From the NCBI GenBank assembly GCA_951406725.2, contig OX597825.1, positions 83,576,001-83,640,000 of the forward strand: DNA of 64,000 nt, read 5' to 3'. A program made the position numbers and the translations under genes. This DNA is from Octopus vulgaris (lineage: Eukaryota). Positions 2,133 through 62,876 of this stretch are shown here, piece by piece (the first letter of the stretch is position 1; every line of letters starts with the position of its first letter). Under the pieces are notes generated by a model, which searched no databases, was not told the DNA's origin, and was given only the letters and a program-made list of their open reading frames with translations.

Positions 2133-2960
2133 GCACATACACTTACGTACATATATATGTACGTATGAAATAAAGTGGATACGTGTGTGTGCGCGCATAT
2201 ATATATATATAAGTATAAATATATATGTATATATATATATATATATAATATATATAATATATATATATGTATGTATATACACACACTTATATATACATAT
2301 ATATGTGTGTGTATGTGTGTGTGAGTGTGTGTGTGTATGTATATATGTATGTATTATTGTGTTTATACGCGTATTTGTTTAAATCTAATAGGTGAGTAAA
2401 AAGATGGATATGTGATATTAAAGAGATGAAAACTGCAATATCAAGAACAACAACAAGAAGAATAACAACAACAACAGCAGCAGCAACAACAACAACGGTT
2501 TCATCGACAGATTCTTCCATGATTATTTCAAGTAATATATCGGCAGGAATAATCAACTGAACAAACACGAAACCAAAGTGGAAATTACAAACATTGAATA
2601 TTTTATTTGCGGTTTGTTTCTTGAATTTCATTTTTATAAAGTGTTTTCGATTTTAATTAAAACACAACCAGTTCACATTTAATACATTCCATGTAATTTA
2701 CAAACTGCATACATGGAAAACTGTAAAGTCTCGAGAATTTTTTTTTGCGTAACGGATAGCGTAGAGTGCCGTGTATCTCCCAGCTAAAAGTCAAAGGTGT
2801 TCGTCTATTTAATAGGACGGACTTGTTTATAAATCACAGCATTCCGATGTTCTTTCTTCATCTGTTGGTCTGTCTACCTATCTACCTATTCAACCATCTA
2901 TCCATCCACCCATCCACCTATCTACCTATATATCTATTTTTTTAAACATAGGTATGTTTC

Positions 2961-3187
2961 TATTTCTTTACTATCCACAAGGAGCTAAACACAGAGGGGC
3001 AAAACAAGGACAGACAAACGGATTATTTCGATTACATCGACCCCAGTGCGTAACTTAATTTATCGACCCCGAAAGGATGAAAGGTAAAGTCGACCTCGGC
3101 GGAATTTGAACTCAGAAAGTAACGGCAGACGAAACGCGGTTACGCATTCGCCCGGGGTGCTAACGTTTGTGCCAGCTCGCTGCTTTA
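2961..3187 (-). mobile_element. tRNA-derived SINE, family A, full length with TSD
   Basis: Minus strand carries head GCGAGCTGGCA, B box GAGTTCAAATTCC and tail AAAGAAATA. Flanked by a 17-bp direct repeat AAACATAGGTATGTTTC at 2944-2960 and 3188-3204. Many copies in the window. Confidence 0.9.
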
Positions 3188-4894: not shown

Positions 4895-4974
4895 GCCATA
4901 TGGCGTAGTTGTCAAGAGCACGGGCTACTAACCCCAAGATTGCGTGTTCGATTCCTAGCAGTGACCTGAATAAT

Positions 4975-5033
<59 letters not shown>

Positions 5034-5135
5034 TAATAATAATAATAATGAAGGCTGGTGGGTATATCAGCCGAAACTTTGTGTCAACAACAAACAAGAT
5101 GGGGACAAATATCGTCATTGTAAATAATGTAAATA

Positions 5136-5140
<5 letters not shown>
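4895..5140 (+). mobile_element. tRNA-head / (AAT)n / Penelope-type hammerhead-tail element, copy 1
   Basis: A box TGGCGTAGTTG, B box GTTCGATTCC, (AAT)n, then TGAAGGCTG..CAGCCGAAAC and tail AAATAATGTA x2. Homologous to 38452-38743. Confidence 0.7.
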
Positions 5141-5186
<46 letters not shown>

Positions 5187-6922: not shown

Positions 6923-7254
6923 TAATCGTAGTATACAGTATTTTGTATACAGTATTATGTATTTCGTTCGCAACAGATGTTTGTTAACTAGACGTTTAAG
7001 AAAAATGGAAGTTATCAGAATGCACGAGCTCTTCAGAGATGAACGTGACTTTAGATACCCGGCAAATTATTTAACATCCGGTTATCTAATAGCCATTACG
7101 AGACATATTGGTAAGATCCGCTGAAATGCATGTATAACACACTGTATGCATATATGTATGTATATATGTATGTGTGTTTATATACATTATGTGAGTAAGT
7201 ATGCATTTATGTATGTATGTAATGCTAATTTCACCAAAATTACCAGAGAATATT

Positions 7255-7705
7255 TATGTCTTTATTGCCCACAGGGGGCTAAACCGATAGGGGACAAACA
7301 AGGACAGACAAAAGGATTAAGTCGATTATATCGACCACAGTGCGTAACTGGTACGTATTTAATCGACCCCGAAAGGAAAGAAAGACAAAGTCGACCTCGG
7401 CGGAATTTGAACTCAGAACGTAGCGGCAGACGAAATACCACTAAGCATTTTGCCCAGCGTGCTAACGTGTCTTATTTCTTTACTGCCCACAAGGGGCTAC
7501 ACACAGCGGGGACAATCAAGGACAGACAAAAGGATTAAGTCCATTATATCGACCGCAGTGCGTAATTGGTACTTATTTAATCGACCCCGAAAGGATGAAA
7601 GGCAAAGTCGACCTCGGCGGAATTTGAACTCAGAACGTAACGGCAGACGTAATAACGCTAAGCATTTCGCCCGGCGTCCTAACGATTCTGCCAGCTCGCC
7701 ACCTT
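7255..7705 (-). mobile_element. Two SINE family A copies in head-to-tail tandem
   Basis: The unit CCCACA.GGGGCTA...GTCGACCTCGGCGGAATTTGAACTCAGAACG occurs twice, with the junction near 7471. Confidence 0.9.
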
Positions 7706-10150
7706 ACAAGGCTTTAACGCCCTTACTGGTAGATCTGCTCTAGACTTATGAGCGACGTTTAAACGACTATAGTAACTCTGGAATAAGATGAGATGCATTT
7801 TTTTAACAATATCCTTTTGGTTTTTTTTCTTTTTCTTTTTCTGAATGGACAGAATTATTGTCATATGGAAGAGCATTCGGGAAACATAGTATATCCTGCT
7901 TAAAATTTTATTACATCATCTGTAACAGATCCATTGTTACGCGGACAATTGCTGTGACAAATATCCATTATTATAAAAATGCCATCCTACCGATCTATTC
8001 TACCAGCGAGACATACATGTAAATGTATTTAAATTATGGGAATTTAAGTATTTTGGAGCTTAAAATAGACAATAGAGATACAAGTTTAGAAACACATGAG
8101 AATTTACTAATAATACATTGAAACTGCAGTCCGGTTCTGGCATCCAGCGCATGAGAAAACGGCGATAGTTTAGTATATTACAGTATATTTGTTTCATTTC
8201 TAAAAAGAAGTTAATAAAAATGTAATATTTTTGTCACATTTTTTTTTTCGCAATAACAATAAAGCGTAATGGTAGTTTCGTAGTTGTTTAAGTCATAATT
8301 ACGATATAATCAATTTGAAGCAATTATAGAGACAGAAAAATATGACTCCTTCATATTAAATATCAAGTATTATATGAAGTGTTATATATAAATATATACT
8401 ACTTCATATCAAGTTTAAAACAATTTTCTTTTTTGCATTTCAGCTGCTGATTTTGCAACAAGTAGCTAGTTCTGAAATCGCTATAAGAGATCTAACTTTT
8501 GAAAATGTTTGTGTCTCTCATACAATGTGCGACGAATGACCGGTAACACAGATGCCTGTATGCCGTTTAGCGGTTGAATATAGCAGATAAATTGCCCTCA
8601 AATCACATCAAACCAGCGTATGTTAAAGACGAAAGATCCTATAGAGTGTTGTCTTTAGTATACAAGACGGGTTGTTTACACCTGGGACATTTTTTCCGAC
8701 TCGGCCTCACCTGAACAGAAGCTATAACAACGACAGCAACAGCAGCAAGAATGGGTAATGAAACAATCTGAAATATTATACATGGATGACGCATTACAAA
8801 CACAATAGACCACGCTTACATGCAGAATACTGCTCTGCATCAATGCTCGGAGTATGGATCTTCATGTAATATTATTTGTCAACAATATAACCAGCAATAT
8901 CCTGAAAGTCTGACAATTTTAATATCAGTTGGTTCTGAAGATGAAACGTAATTAATCATGTTATTTACGTGAGTAATACGGCGACCGTAATTGCAAAAGT
9001 AATTCAAGAGACTAGTTAAGTAAATGCTGTCAATGATGTTGTCAATGATTGAAACCAAGGAGACGATATGTTACATATGCTGTTCAATTATCCTACAATA
9101 TTTCGGGCAACATTCTCCTTTTCAGAAAGATGAAACAAAAGATATAAACCGAAACGTTCAAACAAATATGTCGTTATCTACAGGAATGCATTAACATCAA
9201 CTATTCAACTAAGTGGACAGGAGCAACATGAAATAAATCGTCTTGTCCAAGATGAAACGCGCACCACCAAGCCACGCGCACCTTTACTCACTGTACATGA
9301 GAATGATGTGTCTGGTAAAGTTGAGCTGGACAGAAACTGAACTCAAAATGCAAAGTGTTGGAATTGAATATCACAAAACATTTTGTCCGACGCTCTACCG
9401 ATCCAGTGAGGCAACCCCCGTCTCAGGATTTCCTTTAATGAATGCAAATTTCCCTTGATTTATTCAATCAATTGGTCGTGGCAACATCCTGTAATGGGTA
9501 GTATGGAAGTCTCAACTAGTCACTTTCTCTTAAGTTTATAAGGTTACACTAGAAACGGCAATTTCTGCTGTCGAATAATAATTATTCTGTGCACACGCAC
9601 TTCCATATAATAAGGTTTTAATCAACGGCGTCGTTGTCGCTGCAGTCTTCAGCGTCACCATCGCCTCTTCCTCAACAAAACAACAATAAGAGAAGAGCAT
9701 CGCTAACAACACGTTACATAGATCGTTTCCTACCTTAATTTAATTAACAATCTTACAGTAGGTTGCATGTTAAATTTAGATGCCAGAGCTAACAGAGTTA
9801 AATCAACAATACTTTTATATTAATGTATGCCACAAATTAAATTGAAGTGAACATTCGACTGGAATGGAAAGGGTTAAGGCGTAAAGGTGGAAGGAACAAT
9901 AACAACAAGAGCAAACTTAATCTCTTAACAGCAACAGCAATGACAACAGCAATAAACACGACCAGCAGTAGCGGCTGAACCAACAACAATAAAGACAAAT
10001 ACAAATAACGAGATAAACGGAAACAGATGCGGCAGACATGATGGAAATAAGGATCTGATTTGAAAAAGTATCGATATTACGAACTAACACAAGATTCTCT
10101 ACGCAGTCACTGAGAAATAGCAAGCAACTTTCCTTCAAATTTAAACCTAA

Positions 10151-15515: not shown

Positions 15516-16235
15516 TATGGTACGAACATACATGGCTTTTAAAACATAAACAGGTAATAATGTATTTACAGAATAATTATTAATTAAAATCAGTCTGTTG
15601 ACATCTATAGTATAGAAATAAATATTTGATGACATGTTTAAATATTATGGTGTAGGGACACTGTTTGACACACCAGGTGAGTTGTATATTCCCCCAGCAT
15701 TGATAATCGGAACACCTGCAATAAGTACAGAGTCAAAAGCAACAGAAAGCATATCATTAATAATCCTCGCTGTTGTGTTTGTAGAATTTGAAAGATTAAA
15801 TATCATATAAACACTACGAAGAGACTGGCGAATGAAGATTTGTTGCAGTTCAAAGGAAATTCTTTAAGAAAATTGAAATATATATCTGTATGGAATCTAG
15901 AAACTTATTAGAGTTCAAGAAATGTTTTTTTTTTTCTTTTTTGGTTATTACATGGAATCGAGAACACGTAAATGAATGCTGATACTCATTGGAGCGCTAA
16001 ATCTGCACTCGCAGAATGATAACTTAACACTGAGTTTGGCATTTTAATATGGTGGTTACACGAGGAATTCGGTAGAGAAAAGGAATATTCACCATTTTAA
16101 AAATTTACCGCAAGGGCTGTTTCTTCTTTTCTAAATAATATTGATATTTTAGCTTCGTAACTTTGAGTTAGTGAAATTTTTCATAAACTTGAATTCGTAT
16201 TTAAGTGAAATATTAATGTCTAATGACCTAATATA

Positions 16236-16467
16236 TATTTCTTTATTGCCCACAAGGGGGTAAACATAGAGGGGACAAACAAGGGATGAACAAAGGGATT
16301 AAGTGATTATATCGACCACAGTGCGTAACCGGTACTTTATTTATCGACCCCGAAAGAATGAAAGGCAAAGCCGACCACGGCGGAATTTGAACTCAGAACG
16401 TAGCGACAGACGAAATACTGCTAAGCATTTTGCCCGGCGTGCTAATGTTTCTGCCAGCTCGCCGCCA
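16236..16467 (-). mobile_element. SINE family A, full length with TSD
   Basis: Complete head and tail. 22-bp TSD with 1 mismatch, TAATGTCTAATGAC(C/T)TAATATA, at 16214-16235 and 16491-16512. Confidence 0.9.
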
Positions 16468-36911: not shown

Positions 36912-37483
36912 TTCGGCACAATGCCAGCAATTTCCGAGGAGGGTTAAATCGATGGTATGAATCCTAGTACTCGACTGGTAATTATTCTATCGACCCTGAA
37001 CGAATGAAAAGTAAATCCGACTTCGGAAAATTTGAACTCAGAACGTAAAGCCGGACGAAATACCTATTTCTGTACTACCAAACAAGGGGCTAAACACCGA
37101 AGGGACAAACAAGGACAGACAAATGGATTAAGTCGATTATATCGACCGCCGGTGCGTAACTGGTACTTATTTAATCGACCCCGAAAGTATGAAAGGCAAA
37201 GTCGACTTCGGCGGAATTCGAACTCCGAACGTAAAGCCAGGCGAAATACCTATTTCTTTATTACCCACAAGGGGGATAAACATAGAGGGGACAAACAAGG
37301 ACAGACATAGGTATCAAGTCGATTATATCGACCCTAGTGTGTAAGTGGTACTTAATTTATCGACCCCGAAATGATGAAAGACAAAGTCGACTTCGGCGGG
37401 ATTTGAACTCACAACGTAACGGCAGACGAAATACCACTAAGCAAATTTTCCCGACGCTGCAACGATTCTGCAAGCTTGCCGCT
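36912..37483 (-). mobile_element. Three SINE family A units in tandem
   Basis: The junction GAAATACC|TATTTC occurs twice, near 37064 and 37250. Confidence 0.9.
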
Positions 37484-38451
37484 TTATTTCCATACTAATA
37501 TATTGCAATTGAGTTATAAAGCAGTGAGCTGGTAGAATCGCTAGTCTTTGCATCCTGGGTTCGAATCCCACCATGGTCGACTGTGCTTTCATTCTTTCGA
37601 GAAATGCTGCTAACCATTTTGTTCAACTTGCTAGTAATTCTACCAGGTCGATTCTTTATGTAGAGAAACCATAATTCTTCCGTAATACAGGCCCAAGGCC
37701 CGAAATTATGGTTGCACGGGGTATTGTTGATTGCATCAATCGCAGTGTTCAGCCGATATTTATTTATCAACCCCGAAAAGATGGAAACAGTATTGATTTC
37801 AGCGAAATTTTAACTCTGAAAGTGGCGAAAGAAACTCTGCTAAAATATTTAACCATTTTGCTACTGATTCCAGGAGCGCGTTGCCTTGTTTAGGGAAATT
37901 ATGCTTCTTCTGTGATGTAGGCCCAAGACCCCAAAAGTAGGCTCAGGCGGTACAGAATAGTTGATTGCATCGACCCCAGAGTTTAATCAGTACTTATTTT
38001 GTCGGTGTTTGTGTTCTTTTCTCTTATCTTCCGTTGTGGCCGACCTTGCTTTTCATCCTTTCTTGATCGATGAAATAAGTGCCACGTTATCAATGGGATA
38101 CATGTAATCGACTAGGCCCTTTTCTCCAAATTTCAGGCCTTGTGCCTATAACAGAAAGTATATTAATGGATGAAGTTGCTTCATATTTACAACAGCTCAA
38201 TCCACATGACCTCACATTCACCATGTGGCCTTCACCCCACGTTACTAAAGAGCAGACAGTAAGTATTGCACTGAAGGATTTTCCGAGCAAGGGATCAAGC
38301 AACGGGGTTCTATTTATTGCTCAGCAATTTTAATTGACATTACTCCAAGGATTCATTCTTACAGAGAATAACCAAGAATAAATTTATAATCCAAAACAAC
38401 GATGTGCAGAGGATTTGCAGCAAAAATTAACAAAGAACATGTGCAAACATA

Positions 38452-38743
38452 CAGTTCTATATGCCCAGGGGCATATGGCGTAGTGGTGAATAGCGCGGGC
38501 TACTAACCTCAAGATTCCGTGTTCGAGTCGAAGCAGTGGCCTGAACACTAACAATAATAATAATAATAATAATAATGATAATAATAATAATAACAACAAC
38601 AACATCGGAAAATTCCTTAGGAATGAAAACCCAAGTTCGAAATTTCCTGAAGAAGGCAGGACGGTATATCAGCCGAAACGTTGTGTTAACAACAAACAAG
38701 ATGAGGACAAATATCCGTCAAATTTAAATAATGTAAATAATGT
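38452..38743 (+). mobile_element. tRNA-head / (AAT)n / hammerhead-tail element, copy 2, with TSD
   Basis: A box TGGCGTAGTGG, B box GTTCGAGTC, CTGAAGA-AGGC..GCC-GAAACGTT. 13-bp direct repeat ATGTGCAAACATA at 38439-38451 and 38744-38756. Confidence 0.8.
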
Positions 38744-38930
38744 ATGTGCAAACATATTTGCACATACATTATTATGTTAAAGGTATATGTCAAAGTTACG
38801 TAAATTTTAACGATAGCAATAATGAGCAGCTGCCTTCATGTAAAACAGCCAAACTTTTAGTAAAAGACTGGAAGACGTTAATCGTAAATATTTTATTGCA
38901 TAGAATTTTGTATCTTGTATTATAAGAAGA

Positions 38931-39469: not shown

Positions 39470-41199
39470 TTACTGGTGAGTCCGTAGGTGACCGATAAGA
39501 CCAATTCTTGCTTGAAAAGATCGGTCGCAGTGCGGACATCTAGTGCCGGAAGGGAGAGTCGCACGTGGTTGTTGTTGTTGGCGCTCTTTCCGTCGTCGTC
39601 TTTTCTCCTCCAGCTCTGCAGACCTTTTCGACTCGAAAGTCGCCGTTCCCTCATGGATGGTGGTTTTCCAGAGTGGTCTGTTTTTTGCCGTTTCCTCCCA
39701 GTCGATGTCACACATTTTGAGGTTCGTTTTCAGGGAGTCATTGTAGCGTTTCTTCTGGCTTCCTTTTGTGCGCTTGCCGTCTTTGAGTTGGGAGTAGAAG
39801 ATCTGTTTGGGAAGTCGTTCGTCAGTCATTCTAACCACGTGGCCGCTCCATCTTAGTTGGCCTTTGATGACATAGGCTTCGATGCTGGTCATTTTTGCTT
39901 CTTGTAGCACGCTGACGTTTGTTCTTCTGTCTTCCCAGCTGATGTTAAGGGTCTTCCGAAGACAGCGTTGGTGAAATTTCTCGAGCGTTTTCAGGTGGTG
40001 ACTATACGGGGTCCGGGTTTCGGATGCGTAAAGGAGGGTTGGAATAATGACTGCCCTGTACACCATGAGTTTGGTTTCGGTTCGGATGTCCCGATCAGCA
40101 AAACCTCTTGTTCGAAGCTTGCCGAAAGCTGTTCCTGCACACTTCAGACGGTGTTGGATTTCATCGCTGAGGTCTACCTTTGCTGACAGATGGCTCCCAA
40201 GGTAGCAGAAATGGTTCACATTTTCCAGTGGAATTCCTTCGAGTTGAATCGATGGCGGGTTGTCAACACGTGCATTGGGAGGAGGTTGGTAGAGTAAGTG
40301 AGTCTTCTTGATGTTGATGCTCAGTCCAAGTTTAGTAGGTGCATGATGAAAAGCATTTAGGATCTGTTGGAGGTGATCCTCTCTGTAAGCTGCTACACTG
40401 TTGTCGTCGGCATATTGGAACTCTAGCAAGCTTCGCACCATTGTCCTTGACGTACTTTTGAGGCGAGCGAGGTTGAAAAGCTTGCCGTCCATTCTGTACG
40501 AGATCTCGAGCTAGGTGGAAGGTCATCTCGTATGATGTGCAACACTGTCGCGATAAAGATGGTAAAGAGGGTTGGCACTATCACGCAGTCTCGCTTCACT
40601 CCGGAGGTGACTTTAAAGGGCTCAGGACTGCCTCTGTCGGTCTGGACTCTGGCGTGCATATTGTCGTGGAGGAGTTTGAAGATCCGGATGAACTTATCTG
40701 GGCATCCATACTGGGCGAGAATATCCCAGAGGAGCCCTCGCGAGACACGATCAAAGGCTTTGGATAGGTCGATAAAGGCCAAATAGAGCGGTTGGTGTTG
40801 CTCACGACATTTTTCTTGTAGCTGTCGCAGCGTGAAGATCATGTCGGTTGTGCTTCGTGATGGCCTAAAGCCGGTCTGCGTCTCAGGAAGGATCCTCTCT
40901 GACAGCGTTTTGAGGCGGTTGTTCAGGATTCGAGCGAGAGAATAATCTTTGGCCTCTTTAGGAATCATGTCAAGTATGCTTTTGTCGATGGTAGCCTTGT
41001 GACTGAGGAGGTCATCGAAGTGTTCTCTCCATCTGTCTCCTATTTCAGTGTTGCTTTTCAGGATGGTCGCTCCGTCTTTCACTTTTGGTCGGAGTTTGAT
41101 TTTCATGGTGGAGGCGATGAGGCGATGATCTGTCCAACACTCATCTGCTCCAGTGGCGGCTCTGGTGAGCAACACATCTTGCTGGTCTCGGGATCTCAC
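39470..41199 (-). pseudogene. RTE reverse transcriptase and C-terminus, split over two frames
   Basis: QTGFRPSRSTTDMIF, FIDLSKAFDRV, QYADD, FCYLGS, LRWSGHVVRM and a terminal C2H2 finger. Frameshift near 40510. Confidence 0.95.
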
Positions 41200-41228
41200 G
41201 ATGATATAGTCGATGAGATGTCATTTTT

Positions 41229-42059
41229 TTATCTTGGATGCTGCCATGAGACCTTATATCGATTATTCTGGCGAAAAAGGGTGTTGGTTATCACCAGGTT
41301 ATGTTCAGCACATTTGGTGAGTAGCAGAGTTCCATTGGCATTGACTTTTCCCACTCCTTCCTTTCCGATGGTTCCTGTCCAGAGTTCACGATCTCTCCCA
41401 ACTCTGGCGTTGAAATATCCCAGGAGAATGATCTTCTCGTCCTTTGGGACGGTAGAGAGAATGCTATCAAGCTGGCTGTAAAACTCTTCCCTGACTAAAT
41501 CCTCCGCGTCAAGGGTGGGAGCATACGCGCTGATGATAGTTGCGTGCTGACTTTTGACAAGCTGGATTCGGAGGGTCATGATCGTGCGGACATTCCGATG
41601 GGCTGCCCTGTCAGTTTGGATAGAATGGTGTTTCGTATTGCAAAAACCACACCATGGATTCGTTGATGGTCGGGATCGTAACCTTCCTTTCCAGAAAAAG
41701 GTGTATTGACCGCCTTCTTCTCTCAGCCGGCCTTCTCCGGCTCTCCGGGTTTCAGTGAGAGCTACGATGTCAAAATTGAATCGATGGAGTTCCCGGGCGA
41801 TGATTGCAGTTCGCCTTTCGGGTCCGTCTGAGTTGGTGTTATCTATGAGAGTCCTGACATTCCAGGTCCCGAATTTCAGCGTTGTGTATCTTGATCTTGA
41901 TTTTCGATCGCATGATGGTGATCCCTCTGGACGCGGTTTTCCAGAGAGGATTGGGGTGAAGCAGACTATGTTTAGGTCACCTTTTCTAGCCCCTTCCCAA
42001 TTCAGGGTGAGCAGAGTGGATCCTAAACAGGGCTGCTCAGTCGTGGATACTGCTGCCAA
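41229..42059 (-). pseudogene. RTE apurinic-like endonuclease domain
   Basis: Motifs FGTWNVRTL, DIVALTETR, SAYAPT and LLG(Y)FNARVG (catalytic D replaced by Y). TDHRL lies in the next frame. Confidence 0.93.
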
Positions 42060-42392
42060 ACATCTTCCCTGCTTCTTCCGAAAGATAGAGCGACTGAATC
42101 ATGTAACCACTGCATTCGTGCCGGTTCTGCACTAGGAGCCTCCAGCCTTCACGAGCCTGCTCCCGTCATCCATCGCCGATCGGCGAAAGACTTGGAAAGA
42201 ATAAGAAGAGTGGTGGCGAAGACGCCTGTGCGTGAAATTTTTTAACGTGTGCTTGTGATCGCACGCCCAGTAAAGCACACGTAAACTTGACAGACCACCA
42301 ACTTGACCCAATGGCAAGGTAAACCGAGACGATTGGAGTCGATGGTCTGCTGCAGCCTTCGTCCGCCTTCACAGCCGTTGAGTTGTTAAGGC

Positions 42393-61280: not shown

Positions 61281-62546
61281 CTATACTTAATATGTATATG
61301 ATCAACCATGATATTGCGTATAAAAATCTACAACCAAAGAAAGATCTCTGGATAAACCAAGCAAATGTTCTTCAAATCACTCCCTGGAGGTCGTTTGAAG
61401 TTGAAACATTGGATAATATAGTCCTAGATTTAATGTTTTCACCAGACGGAAAGGTCAAGCTGGGGCAATTTTGATCACAGCTCTGCTGGATCAGAACTGG
61501 CTGGGAACCTAACGACAGCATATGTTCGCGCACAATAATCGATCGTATATATATTCCAGCTATATTTAATACTCAAAATCTTTGCCAAATTCTCAACATA
61601 TTTTAACTGCAATGTTGCAGCCTCTTTACGATTCATCACGTCATTGGTGTTTGATGTAGGATGTATTTTGTATTTTTGCTGTTTTTATTATATGTTTTTT
61701 TTAGTAATGCATGATCTTACCACGTGACATCGACATGACATGTGAGAAAATTGATTTCATAAGAGAGTATGGTATGCGTTTCTAGTATGGAATTCTTCAT
61801 AATTTATATTTACAAGATGAGGTACATGTTGACCAATTTGTCCTACAAGGAATAGTAGCCACAACGCCCTCAAGTTAAAAACTAGTATCTTACATAGCAA
61901 TAGAACACCCTGGAAAATATAGTTCTAGATTGACAGTGCCTTTACTAGCAGCAGTACTAAGCGGGAAGGGCTGGCTGAACCCAATTTACGCTTTTACGTG
62001 TCCCCACTTTGGGTGCGCATGTTAGGAAGCTTGTTAGGAAGCAAGATACTTAATACACTGTTCCATTTCTACCTATATTATTCCCTTTCTATTTTGTTGT
62101 TAATTGCCACAACTATCTTCAAAGGAATTCCAGCAAATATCATTGTCTTTCTTTTATGGTAATGGTATAGTTAGGTTGTGTCTCACCCGGGATAGCCCTT
62201 CGACTTGCTGGCCTGTTCAGGACACTAAGCCTACACAGGTATACACAGCAGACCCAAAAGGGGGCTCCCATAAAAACGTCATTTGGGTTAAAACATCGCT
62301 TCTCCCCTAGCACCGTTATATATATATATATATATAAATATATAAATAGATGAGTGCATTTTTACCTTGTTAACAGTTAACACGGAAAAAATAAATAAAT
62401 AGTTACCAGGGTAGCAAAATTCTCACAAGTAAAGATGTTGTAACTCCTTGTTTATAAAGGTAGAAACGTCGTGTTTACGTGAAATATTTTCAATAATATA
62501 TGAATAATTAAATGGAGTTTAACGCAGGTGTAAATCAAATATTTTT

Positions 62547-62632
62547 ACTTTCGACACATGTTTCGAAAATTCCACTGATACTATTCAAAAGAATAAATGG
62601 TATAAACAATGCAATCTTCTCTTCAGGAAAGT
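62547..62632 (-). ncRNA. Type-I hammerhead ribozyme, intact core (mirror copy)
   Basis: Reverse complement of 62730-62815, with identical core and stems. Confidence 0.8.
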
Positions 62633-62729
62633 GAAAAAAACGGAATTAATATTAATAGCGTTCTGTCAATCGCTATACAAATCCATCATTTTTTGCTAAA
62701 ATATCTTATTGACGAGTTTCGGTTTTATC

Positions 62730-62815
62730 ACTTTCCTGAAGAGAAGATTGCATTGTTTATACCATTCATTCTTTTGAATAGTATCAGTGGAATTTTCGAA
62801 ACATGTGTCGAAAGT
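62730..62815 (+). ncRNA. Type-I hammerhead ribozyme, intact core
   Basis: ACTTTC-CTGAAGA-GAAGATT..AATTTTC-GAAA-CATGTG-TC-GAAAGT: 6-bp stem I, 7-bp stem II with G10.1-C11.1, GUC site at 62807-62809. Confidence 0.8.
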
Positions 62816-62876
62816 AAAAATATTTGATTTACACCTGCGTTAAACTCCATTTATTTATTCATATATACATAAATAA

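Follow-up and report, generated by a model that had tools for sequence, protein, structure and literature searches.

Solo pseudo-LTRs of an octopus Penelope-like element carry the element's own tRNA-derived promoter sequence

The transcription of Penelope-like elements (PLEs), and the roles of their pseudo-LTRs (pLTRs) and hammerheads, are largely open questions. Drosophila Penelope and one Chlamys copy each have a characterised promoter (accessible part of PMC8557442), and one PLE protein works in vitro (accessible part of PMC11167929). PAc, a Poseidon element of Anolis carolinensis, is described in the latter source as having a single ORF for a reverse transcriptase (RT) plus, C-terminally, a GIY-YIG endonuclease, a hammerhead that overlaps the beginning of the ORF, two internal RT start sites around a 30–40-nt tail, and partial tandems as well as inverted arms (PMC11167929, in part), and the octopus element reported here has all of these. 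The two differ in that the accessible text describes no tRNA-derived or Pol III promoter for PAc, whereas the octopus pLTR begins with A and B boxes, and in that the octopus copies are mostly solos with a fixed 5′ end.

The octopus SINEs OK, OR1, and OR2 are reportedly tRNA-derived and present in tens of thousands of copies, and the OR families are said to be of tRNA-Arg origin. Cassandra, Helenus, and Ajax are non-autonomous LTR elements, whereas the octopus case concerns a PLE pseudo-LTR on a protein-coding element; like that pLTR, they carry small-RNA-derived sequence within the terminal repeat. This last likeness is taken from the accessible part of PMC10886601. OR2 is a CORE-SINE according to the accessible parts of PMC4758252 and PMC5804259; unlike it, in a comparison by description, the octopus unit has its head and tail separated by (AAT)n alone. 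The short repeat may be listed already among the octopus SINEs (e.g., as OK or OR1). Schistosoma Sm-alpha and Sj-alpha, as far as the available text of PMC6765202 describes them, are likewise short, high-copy retroposons in which a Pol III-type promoter is followed by a hammerhead; they are non-autonomous tandem repeats freed by ribozyme cleavage, whereas in octopus the autonomous partner holds the promoter, the hammerhead is of the minimal PLE type, and the copies are dispersed and inverted, with 5′ ends at the promoter rather than at the cut. The dispersed minimal PLE hammerheads resemble the octopus sequence in a 5-bp helix I, an unpaired base before helix II, the lack of a proper helix III, and the prevalence of solos from truncated PLEs; the words "tRNA" and "polymerase III" do not occur in the available text (PMC4209133), and the octopus helix II is 5–6 bp. 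Chlamys elements such as MRC1, like the octopus solos, are non-autonomous copies with the 3′ ends of an autonomous PLE, but they belong to another PLE clade, with an N-terminal nuclease, and the accessible part of PMC8557442 reports no tRNA head. In a search of the open full-text literature, with most subscription papers and the sequences of Repbase, Dfam, and SINEBase lying outside it, no paper turned up in which a PLE pLTR has a tRNA or Pol III promoter or an octopus tRNA SINE is mobilised by a PLE.

The stretch of Octopus vulgaris DNA analysed here (64 kb, hereafter the window) holds two copies of such a unit. In the initial annotation, they were read as possible members of a SINE- or retrozyme-like family in which a tRNA head had been joined to a borrowed PLE tail, and the parts it listed (an A/B-box tRNA-like head, an (AAT)n spacer, a hammerhead remnant, a 13-bp duplication, and a second copy) are all present. 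Copy 1, on the plus strand except where noted, opens with the left target-site duplication (38439–38451; 13 bp, identical to the right one at 38744–38756), the last 3 nt of which are common to a minimal inverted arm at 38449–38462 (minus strand). This arm repeats the element's long 3′ end, the PLE "tail" terminus, in inverted orientation; it is the reverse complement of the tail end of other copies and fits a pairing of long and short ends. A 6-nt leader follows (38463–38468), at which the 5′ ends of solo copies cluster and which lies 23 nt past the stop codon in ORF-bearing copies; its first G, 13 nt 5′ of the A box, is the likely transcription start. The tRNA-derived head (38469–38545), for which the nearest of the host tRNAs compared is tRNA-Arg, contains an A box (TGGCGTAGTGG, 38476–38486) and a B box (38520–38530), and is followed by an (AAT/AAC)n spacer of variable length at 38546–38603. 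The rest, 38604–38744, is the 3′ part of the pLTR; it overlaps the start of the PLE ORF, into which other copies continue unbroken, and stops at the short RT start site, one of two at which 3′ ends accumulate. Within it lie the first in-frame ATG of the PLE ORF (38623–38625), the remnant of a minimal type I hammerhead (38647–38687), and AATAATGT repeats ending at 38744. The remnant comprises the CTGAAGA core (38647–38653), stem II (GGCAG/CAGCC, with one mismatch), GAAAC-GTT, and the 3′ strand of stem I, and includes GAAACGTT at 38675–38682; the 5′ strand of stem I was lost in a 10-nt deletion directly upstream. This deletion was considered as the mark of a subfamily sharing it and was ruled out as such, since it occurs with both core alleles.

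The 13-bp duplication shares 3 nt with the element at its left side and 1 nt at its right, so between 9 and 13 bp derive from the target. Copy 1, which has the short end as its right boundary and no more than 14 inverted nt of the long end as its left, is the minimal case of the inverted insertions described below. Separately, a 38-nt palindrome at 38736–38773 overlaps the right duplication and the 3′ end of the element, as though copying had turned back on itself at the junction. Copy 2 (4897–5141, plus strand) matches copy 1 at 86% over 74 nt of head and 89% over 94 nt of tail. Its head (4897–4970) has an A box at 4901–4911 with a GG>TG change and a B box at 4945–4955; its (AAT)n spacer (4971–5049) runs straight into the hammerhead core, and in its pLTR tail (5050–5141) the hammerhead is broken, with the palindrome mutated and the 5′ strand of stem I gone along with the first ∼53 nt of the tail. 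The 3′ end is at the short site, inside (AT)n, with no clear duplication. ARAGORN found no tRNA within the 64-kb window, and of the 345 Rfam matches to the window, the best 150 included neither a tRNA nor a hammerhead; a better-preserved copy gave neither as well, and the window matches themselves were dismissed as microsatellite-driven miRNA matches. The tRNA and hammerhead calls therefore rest on alignment and inspection rather than on a family match.

An autonomous PLE with the same tail, which the initial annotation proposed to look for, was found. At one locus (L024) the tail continues into PLE-like coding sequence, and two walking searches gave a frame that begins at an ATG inside the tail and passes through the hammerhead into an RT (RVT_1, E 1.8e-8) and then a C-terminal nuclease. 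The ORF has 599 relatives at E≤1e-20 and is colinear with a PLE-type protein of Anolis (P0108), sharing 29% identity at the N-terminus (E 6e-23) and 39% across the RT and thumb; its nuclease, with the region CVYSIPCSCG-x-x-YKGET...R..EH, aligns with residues 661–806 of P0108 at 27% (E 1e-13). P0108 (836 aa) is taken here as PAc on organism and length only. The Pfam GIY-YIG model matches neither the ORF fragment nor P0108, and it does match a relative (P0060) at the equivalent place. With a predicted PLE-type RT and a predicted C-terminal GIY-YIG-type endonuclease, the partner has the make-up of an EN+ PLE (Penelope/Poseidon type), and the tail is continuous with its ORF and not with a LINE. 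A second PLE family in the genome searched was sought as an internal control and abandoned, all 42 loci from the P0060 search being of the same family. Viral contigs contained no relatives. PLE ORFs were also seen on contigs filed under bacterial or archaeal genome bins (L462–L472), and these are most likely animal or other eukaryotic DNA within the bins.

The head does not belong to a separate unit but to the 3′ UTR of this PLE. Among 20 extended ORF loci, 12 have a complete sense ORF end, which the head follows in 11 and its first 11 nt alone in the remaining one; of 30 loci picked by RT protein, 22 contain the ORF end and 21 of these have a head within 70 nt, the exception being rearranged. 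The spacing is fixed (stop codon, 23 nt, the 6-nt leader, tRNA position 1), and the full layout runs ORF, stop, 23 nt, leader, tRNA head, (AAT)n, ATG, hammerhead, tail, ORF. One locus (L120) is continuous from the first base of a head through the whole ORF to the next head. Contigs of four other organisms cover the region around the ORF end and head, those of at least three bridging the stop codon with at least 31 nt on each side. Since the head lies 23–29 nt past the PLE stop in 21 of 22 ORF-selected copies, we conclude that the unit is a solo pLTR, and we regard the structure, a solo pLTR of a PLE carrying its own tRNA-derived promoter sequence, as practically certain.

A comparison of 55 attached with 105 solo heads, the latter set being partly biased toward the window copy, revealed only four polymorphic columns, with both alleles in both sets and no fixed diagnostic difference; one column had opposite majorities (p 0.03), and the allele ratio was shifted at one core position (p 0.004). 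The spacer had a median of 26 nt in attached and 52 nt in solo copies. Two features expected of a SINE2 are present, namely a tRNA-derived 5′ head with A and B boxes and a target-site duplication of variable length. The head, however, is not independent of the partner, in whose own UTR it sits without fixed differences, and the 3′ tail is shared not with a LINE but with the PLE ORF, into which it runs. Head and tail are linked in 24 of 30 position-ordered head copies, as the initial annotation had expected of a real unit, and a head-only SINE family was rejected, as four of six tail-less heads have an inverted element arm. Its proposal of a family mobilised by PLE machinery agrees with insertion signatures of PLE type. 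The picture of a separate SINE or retrozyme with a borrowed PLE tail is not supported, nor did we see retrozyme-like tandem arrays, the copies being dispersed and mostly single or inverted. Because the "SINE" is the partner's own end, the line between a SINE and its partner is blurred, and the autonomous element would act as its own SINE.

The genome searched (G000; 2.8 Gb in 227 contigs) contains 8,676 exact matches to a 27-mer of the tail, 1,149 to a 26-mer of the head, 483 to a nuclease-end motif, and 119 to an RT motif, with none for the reversed-pattern control of each. These counts are not copy numbers, because the motifs survive exactly in unequal fractions of copies (15–41% of ORF-selected copies, measured partly on motifs shifted by 2–4 nt). 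In 100 evenly spaced 10-kb stretches, the element occurred in 14, a head in 7, and an ORF end in 1; at 14 insertions per Mb sampled, this gives an estimated ∼39,000 insertions (21,000–66,000), with solos and ORF-bearing copies at about 5:1. Fifteen tail matches of at least 80 nt from this sample diverged from the majority sequence by 2.8–12.7% (mean 7.6%). None of 151 matches, obtained by scoring 150 of 11,532 candidates, had an intact ORF, the longest stop-free stretch being 569 aa. With this divergence and no intact ORF seen, the family looks old and silent. A tRNA promoter in the pLTR would explain a family of ∼40,000 insertions that is likely annotated as a tRNA SINE.

Insertions carry the marks of a PLE. 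The 3′ ends are bimodal, at tail positions ∼135–155 and 175–182, some 35 nt apart, and 44 of 77 insertions contain the element in both orientations. Where tail ends lie at both outer edges (32 insertions), the pairing is long/short in 28, short/short in 3, other/short in 1, and never long/long (P 3e-6 for long/short pairing under independence), and 21 of the 32 inverted insertions are flanked by duplications of 7–13 nt, as compared to 5% of mismatched control pairs. The two RT start sites and the "tail" described for PAc (PMC11167929, in part) fit this long/short pairing, and a tail with inverted arms is a PLE insertion signature in the accessible part of PMC8557442. The 28 of 32 provide genomic support for two-strand priming.

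When the head was compared with host tRNA loci, limited to Arg, Ala, Thr, Cys, Lys, and Glu, the best three matches were all Arg, at 51 identities. The A and B boxes of copy 1 score 16.5 bits, above all 60 shuffles, and both are kept in the majority sequence; the stems are not, and the cloverleaf is decayed, with acceptor and T stems largely unpaired. The short copies have a sharp 5′ end, 7–13 nt 5′ of the A box in 25 of 30. Among these 30 copies (the first on contig C1 with the head motif), 14 start 0–2 nt and 11 start 4–7 nt before tRNA position 1, forming two groups (−2 to 0 and −7 to −4 from the tRNA's first base), and the remaining 5 extend ∼60–480 nt into the ORF. Because this sample requires the head motif, we recounted on random and tail-motif samples, where 12 of 31 copies begin within the head (+12 to +45 from the leader G), 17 at −3 to +11, and 2 further upstream. 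Truncation is thus heavy already within tail and head, but 17 of the 19 copies that reach +11 in these samples, not chosen by head, end between −3 and +11. The rate of 5′ ends is 0.091 per nt at the leader versus 0.013 inside the head, and this roughly sevenfold rise makes it likely that the copies share a defined RNA 5′ end at the leader; its distance to the A box suggests that Pol III starts there. With a tRNA promoter in its terminal repeat, a PLE offers a defined start site that can be mutated. At two other loci (L069 and L071), the leader G of a downstream head is joined without a gap to N-terminal pieces of the ORF, which would be expected if the RT had reached the RNA 5′ end and then switched template.

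Runs of four or more T are absent from the 2.6-kb majority sense strand, where 2.7–3.6 are expected (P 0.07 under a dinucleotide model), and the natural in-frame stretches contain 10 such runs versus 52 expected. These stretches all trace back to a single master, however, and a fair comparison is therefore 0 versus 3.6 (P 0.026). Control PLE loci (79 from metagenome contigs, of which 60 have an ORF of at least 1.2 kb) gave no such depletion in the ORFs of other organisms, with 465 runs versus 412 expected in the 60 ORFs and 85 versus 88.5 in 25 controls of similar T content; 3 of the 60 ORFs lack T4 altogether. Runs of four G are likewise absent from the majority sense strand (P 0.056). With a single master and P values of 0.026–0.07, the shortage of T4 is suggestive only as a sign of Pol III transcription.

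Taken together, we consider it probable that the unit is a solo pLTR with tRNA-Arg-derived A and B boxes that likely serve as a Pol III promoter, and that its RNAs were likely inserted by the element's own RT-endonuclease; that Pol III templated the short copies is, judging from sequence features, probable to the same degree. Under such circumstances, Pol III would start at the leader G and its transcript, meeting no TTTT, would run through the pLTR past both priming sites; the PLE protein would nick both target strands, cDNA would be primed at the long site on one strand and at the short site on the other, and the two cDNAs would be joined, often at short homologies, to leave a head-first copy with an inverted arm. 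Every ORF-bearing copy would have a promoter at its 3′ end, and a few thousand such copies could therefore seed tens of thousands of solos. An uncapped Pol III RNA leaves translation unexplained, which counts against the Pol III reading.

A capped RNA would remove that problem, and one could envision the same solo pLTR with the tRNA as a passenger, transcribed by Pol II from a pLTR promoter or by read-through, its 5′ ends piling up at a Pol II start or where the RT stalls and folds back at a small palindrome at the start site (GCCC-AC-GGGC). Drosophila Penelope does have an internal promoter and a start in its pLTR (PMC8557442, accessible part), and a TATA-like TATAA at −28, present in 27 of 55 attached copies, suits Pol II as well, although it overlaps the stop codon and may be incidental. 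The palindrome could itself stop the RT or cause fold-back, and some copies are near-perfect head-to-head repeats centred on it (L135, L298, L044); however, its hairpin is only 4–5 bp, and solos without an inverted arm start there too (e.g., L140). The start also sits where that of a tRNA gene would relative to the A box, the majority sequence retains both boxes but not the stems, and T4 runs are depleted, so we consider Pol II transcription unlikely. Still less can be said for a 5′ end made by processing, in which RNase P or another nuclease would cut a long precursor at the tRNA-like fold: 14 of 30 copies do start no more than 2 nt away from the RNase P position at tRNA base 1, but 11 of 30 retain a leader of 4–7 nt, most of the acceptor and T stems is unpaired, and neither ARAGORN nor Rfam recognises a tRNA, which makes this scarcely credible.

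Alternatively, the solos could form a true, separate SINE lineage of tRNA head and PLE pLTR with its own masters, the autonomous element having acquired the head secondarily. Solos outnumber ORF-bearing copies about fivefold, have longer spacers and other allele ratios, and, where their boxes are intact, could re-seed. Against this, the head is found on every ORF end examined except that of one rearranged copy, no fixed difference separates the 55 attached from the 105 solo copies (the solo set being partly biased to the window copy), and 5 of 30 heads run on into the ORF; we think a separate lineage very improbable.

The probable reading, of Pol III-templated solo pLTRs, could be extended, tentatively and with a good deal of doubt, to the whole element: its ∼3-kb transposition RNA would be made by Pol III from the captured tRNA promoter, with the sense strand purged of TTTT, each new full copy would keep a 5′ internal promoter while its 3′ pLTR sheds solos, and the same design would have arisen separately in at least one other PLE lineage. 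If full-length transcription by Pol III is true, PLEs would be a direct birthplace of SINEs with hammerheads. The candidate second case (L383) comes from a metagenome contig and is an intact tandem PLE unrelated to the octopus family. After its stop, at positions 2759–3030, it has TATAA, an A-box-like and a B-box-like sequence, a short run of AAT, and a hammerhead that lies within the start of the ORF, in the same order as in the octopus element. The A and B boxes of L383 score 21 bits, as compared to 22 in the best octopus-family copies, above 38 other control UTRs (maximum 6.9) and 6 further ones; 4 of 5,000 shuffles reach this score, or ∼0.04 when corrected for 45 loci. The T4 ratio of this element is the second lowest of 46 controls (2 versus 7.1 runs), both runs lying directly past the hammerhead. 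In a quick 48-row tree, built without named Repbase references or an outgroup root, it is not sister to the octopus family, and the intermediate lineages are without boxes. The scan is blind to decayed boxes (2 of 8 test regions from the octopus family itself score nothing, window copy 2 among them), so the controls may hide more cases. Relaxed ARAGORN matches on the control UTRs were indiscriminate and were disregarded.

Hammerheads elsewhere in the genome are better preserved than those of the window. Among 51 motif-spanning copies in samples not chosen by tail, the GACAC strand of stem I precedes the core in 36 and is deleted in 3, and the whole motif is intact in 5; the strand is indeed missing from both window copies, as the initial annotation noted, and these are dead, as it had thought probable, and the check it proposed for the strand before CTGA found it in most copies. 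The layout (5-bp stem I, CUGA(U/A)GA, one unpaired A, a stem II of 5–6 bp, GAAAC-GUU) is that of minimal PLE hammerheads in the accessible part of PMC4209133, and minimal hammerheads act as dimers (PMC7761336, in part). Stem III would be impossible in a monomer, and the AACGUU palindrome would permit it between two molecules. GUU is a weak cleavage triplet. Unconstrained folding of the majority sequence gave stems I and II, but the core was paired otherwise in monomer and dimer alike, and activity is therefore not predicted by folding. The hammerhead comes from the PLE and would probably work only in dimeric form. The 5′ ends of copies do not appear to be fixed by it, as no pile-up occurs at its cut in 30 tail-motif matches and near-cut starts are confined to one insertion pair and one further locus (L305).

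Several other repeats in and around these copies deserve mention. A 366-bp near-palindrome (86%) at 62496–62866 has in each arm a minimal-hammerhead-like motif (CTGAAGA ... GAAACATGTGTC, with palindromic ACATGT) and likely represents inverted arms from the pLTR of another, unrelated PLE family. In many cases other retroelements that themselves end in (AAT)n have left their 3′ ends within the (AAT)n spacer (L011, L028, L046, L048, L058, L284, L289), which therefore seems to be a preferred target. A far commoner repeat family of ∼230 bp, sometimes in tandem, accounts for more than 10 pieces in the window (2960–3187, 7249–7706, 16230–16465, 36940–37486, and others). Finally, a broken LINE, which we take by its motifs to be RTE-like, lies on the minus strand at 39473–42098, ∼700 bp downstream of copy 1, with endonuclease and RT frames.
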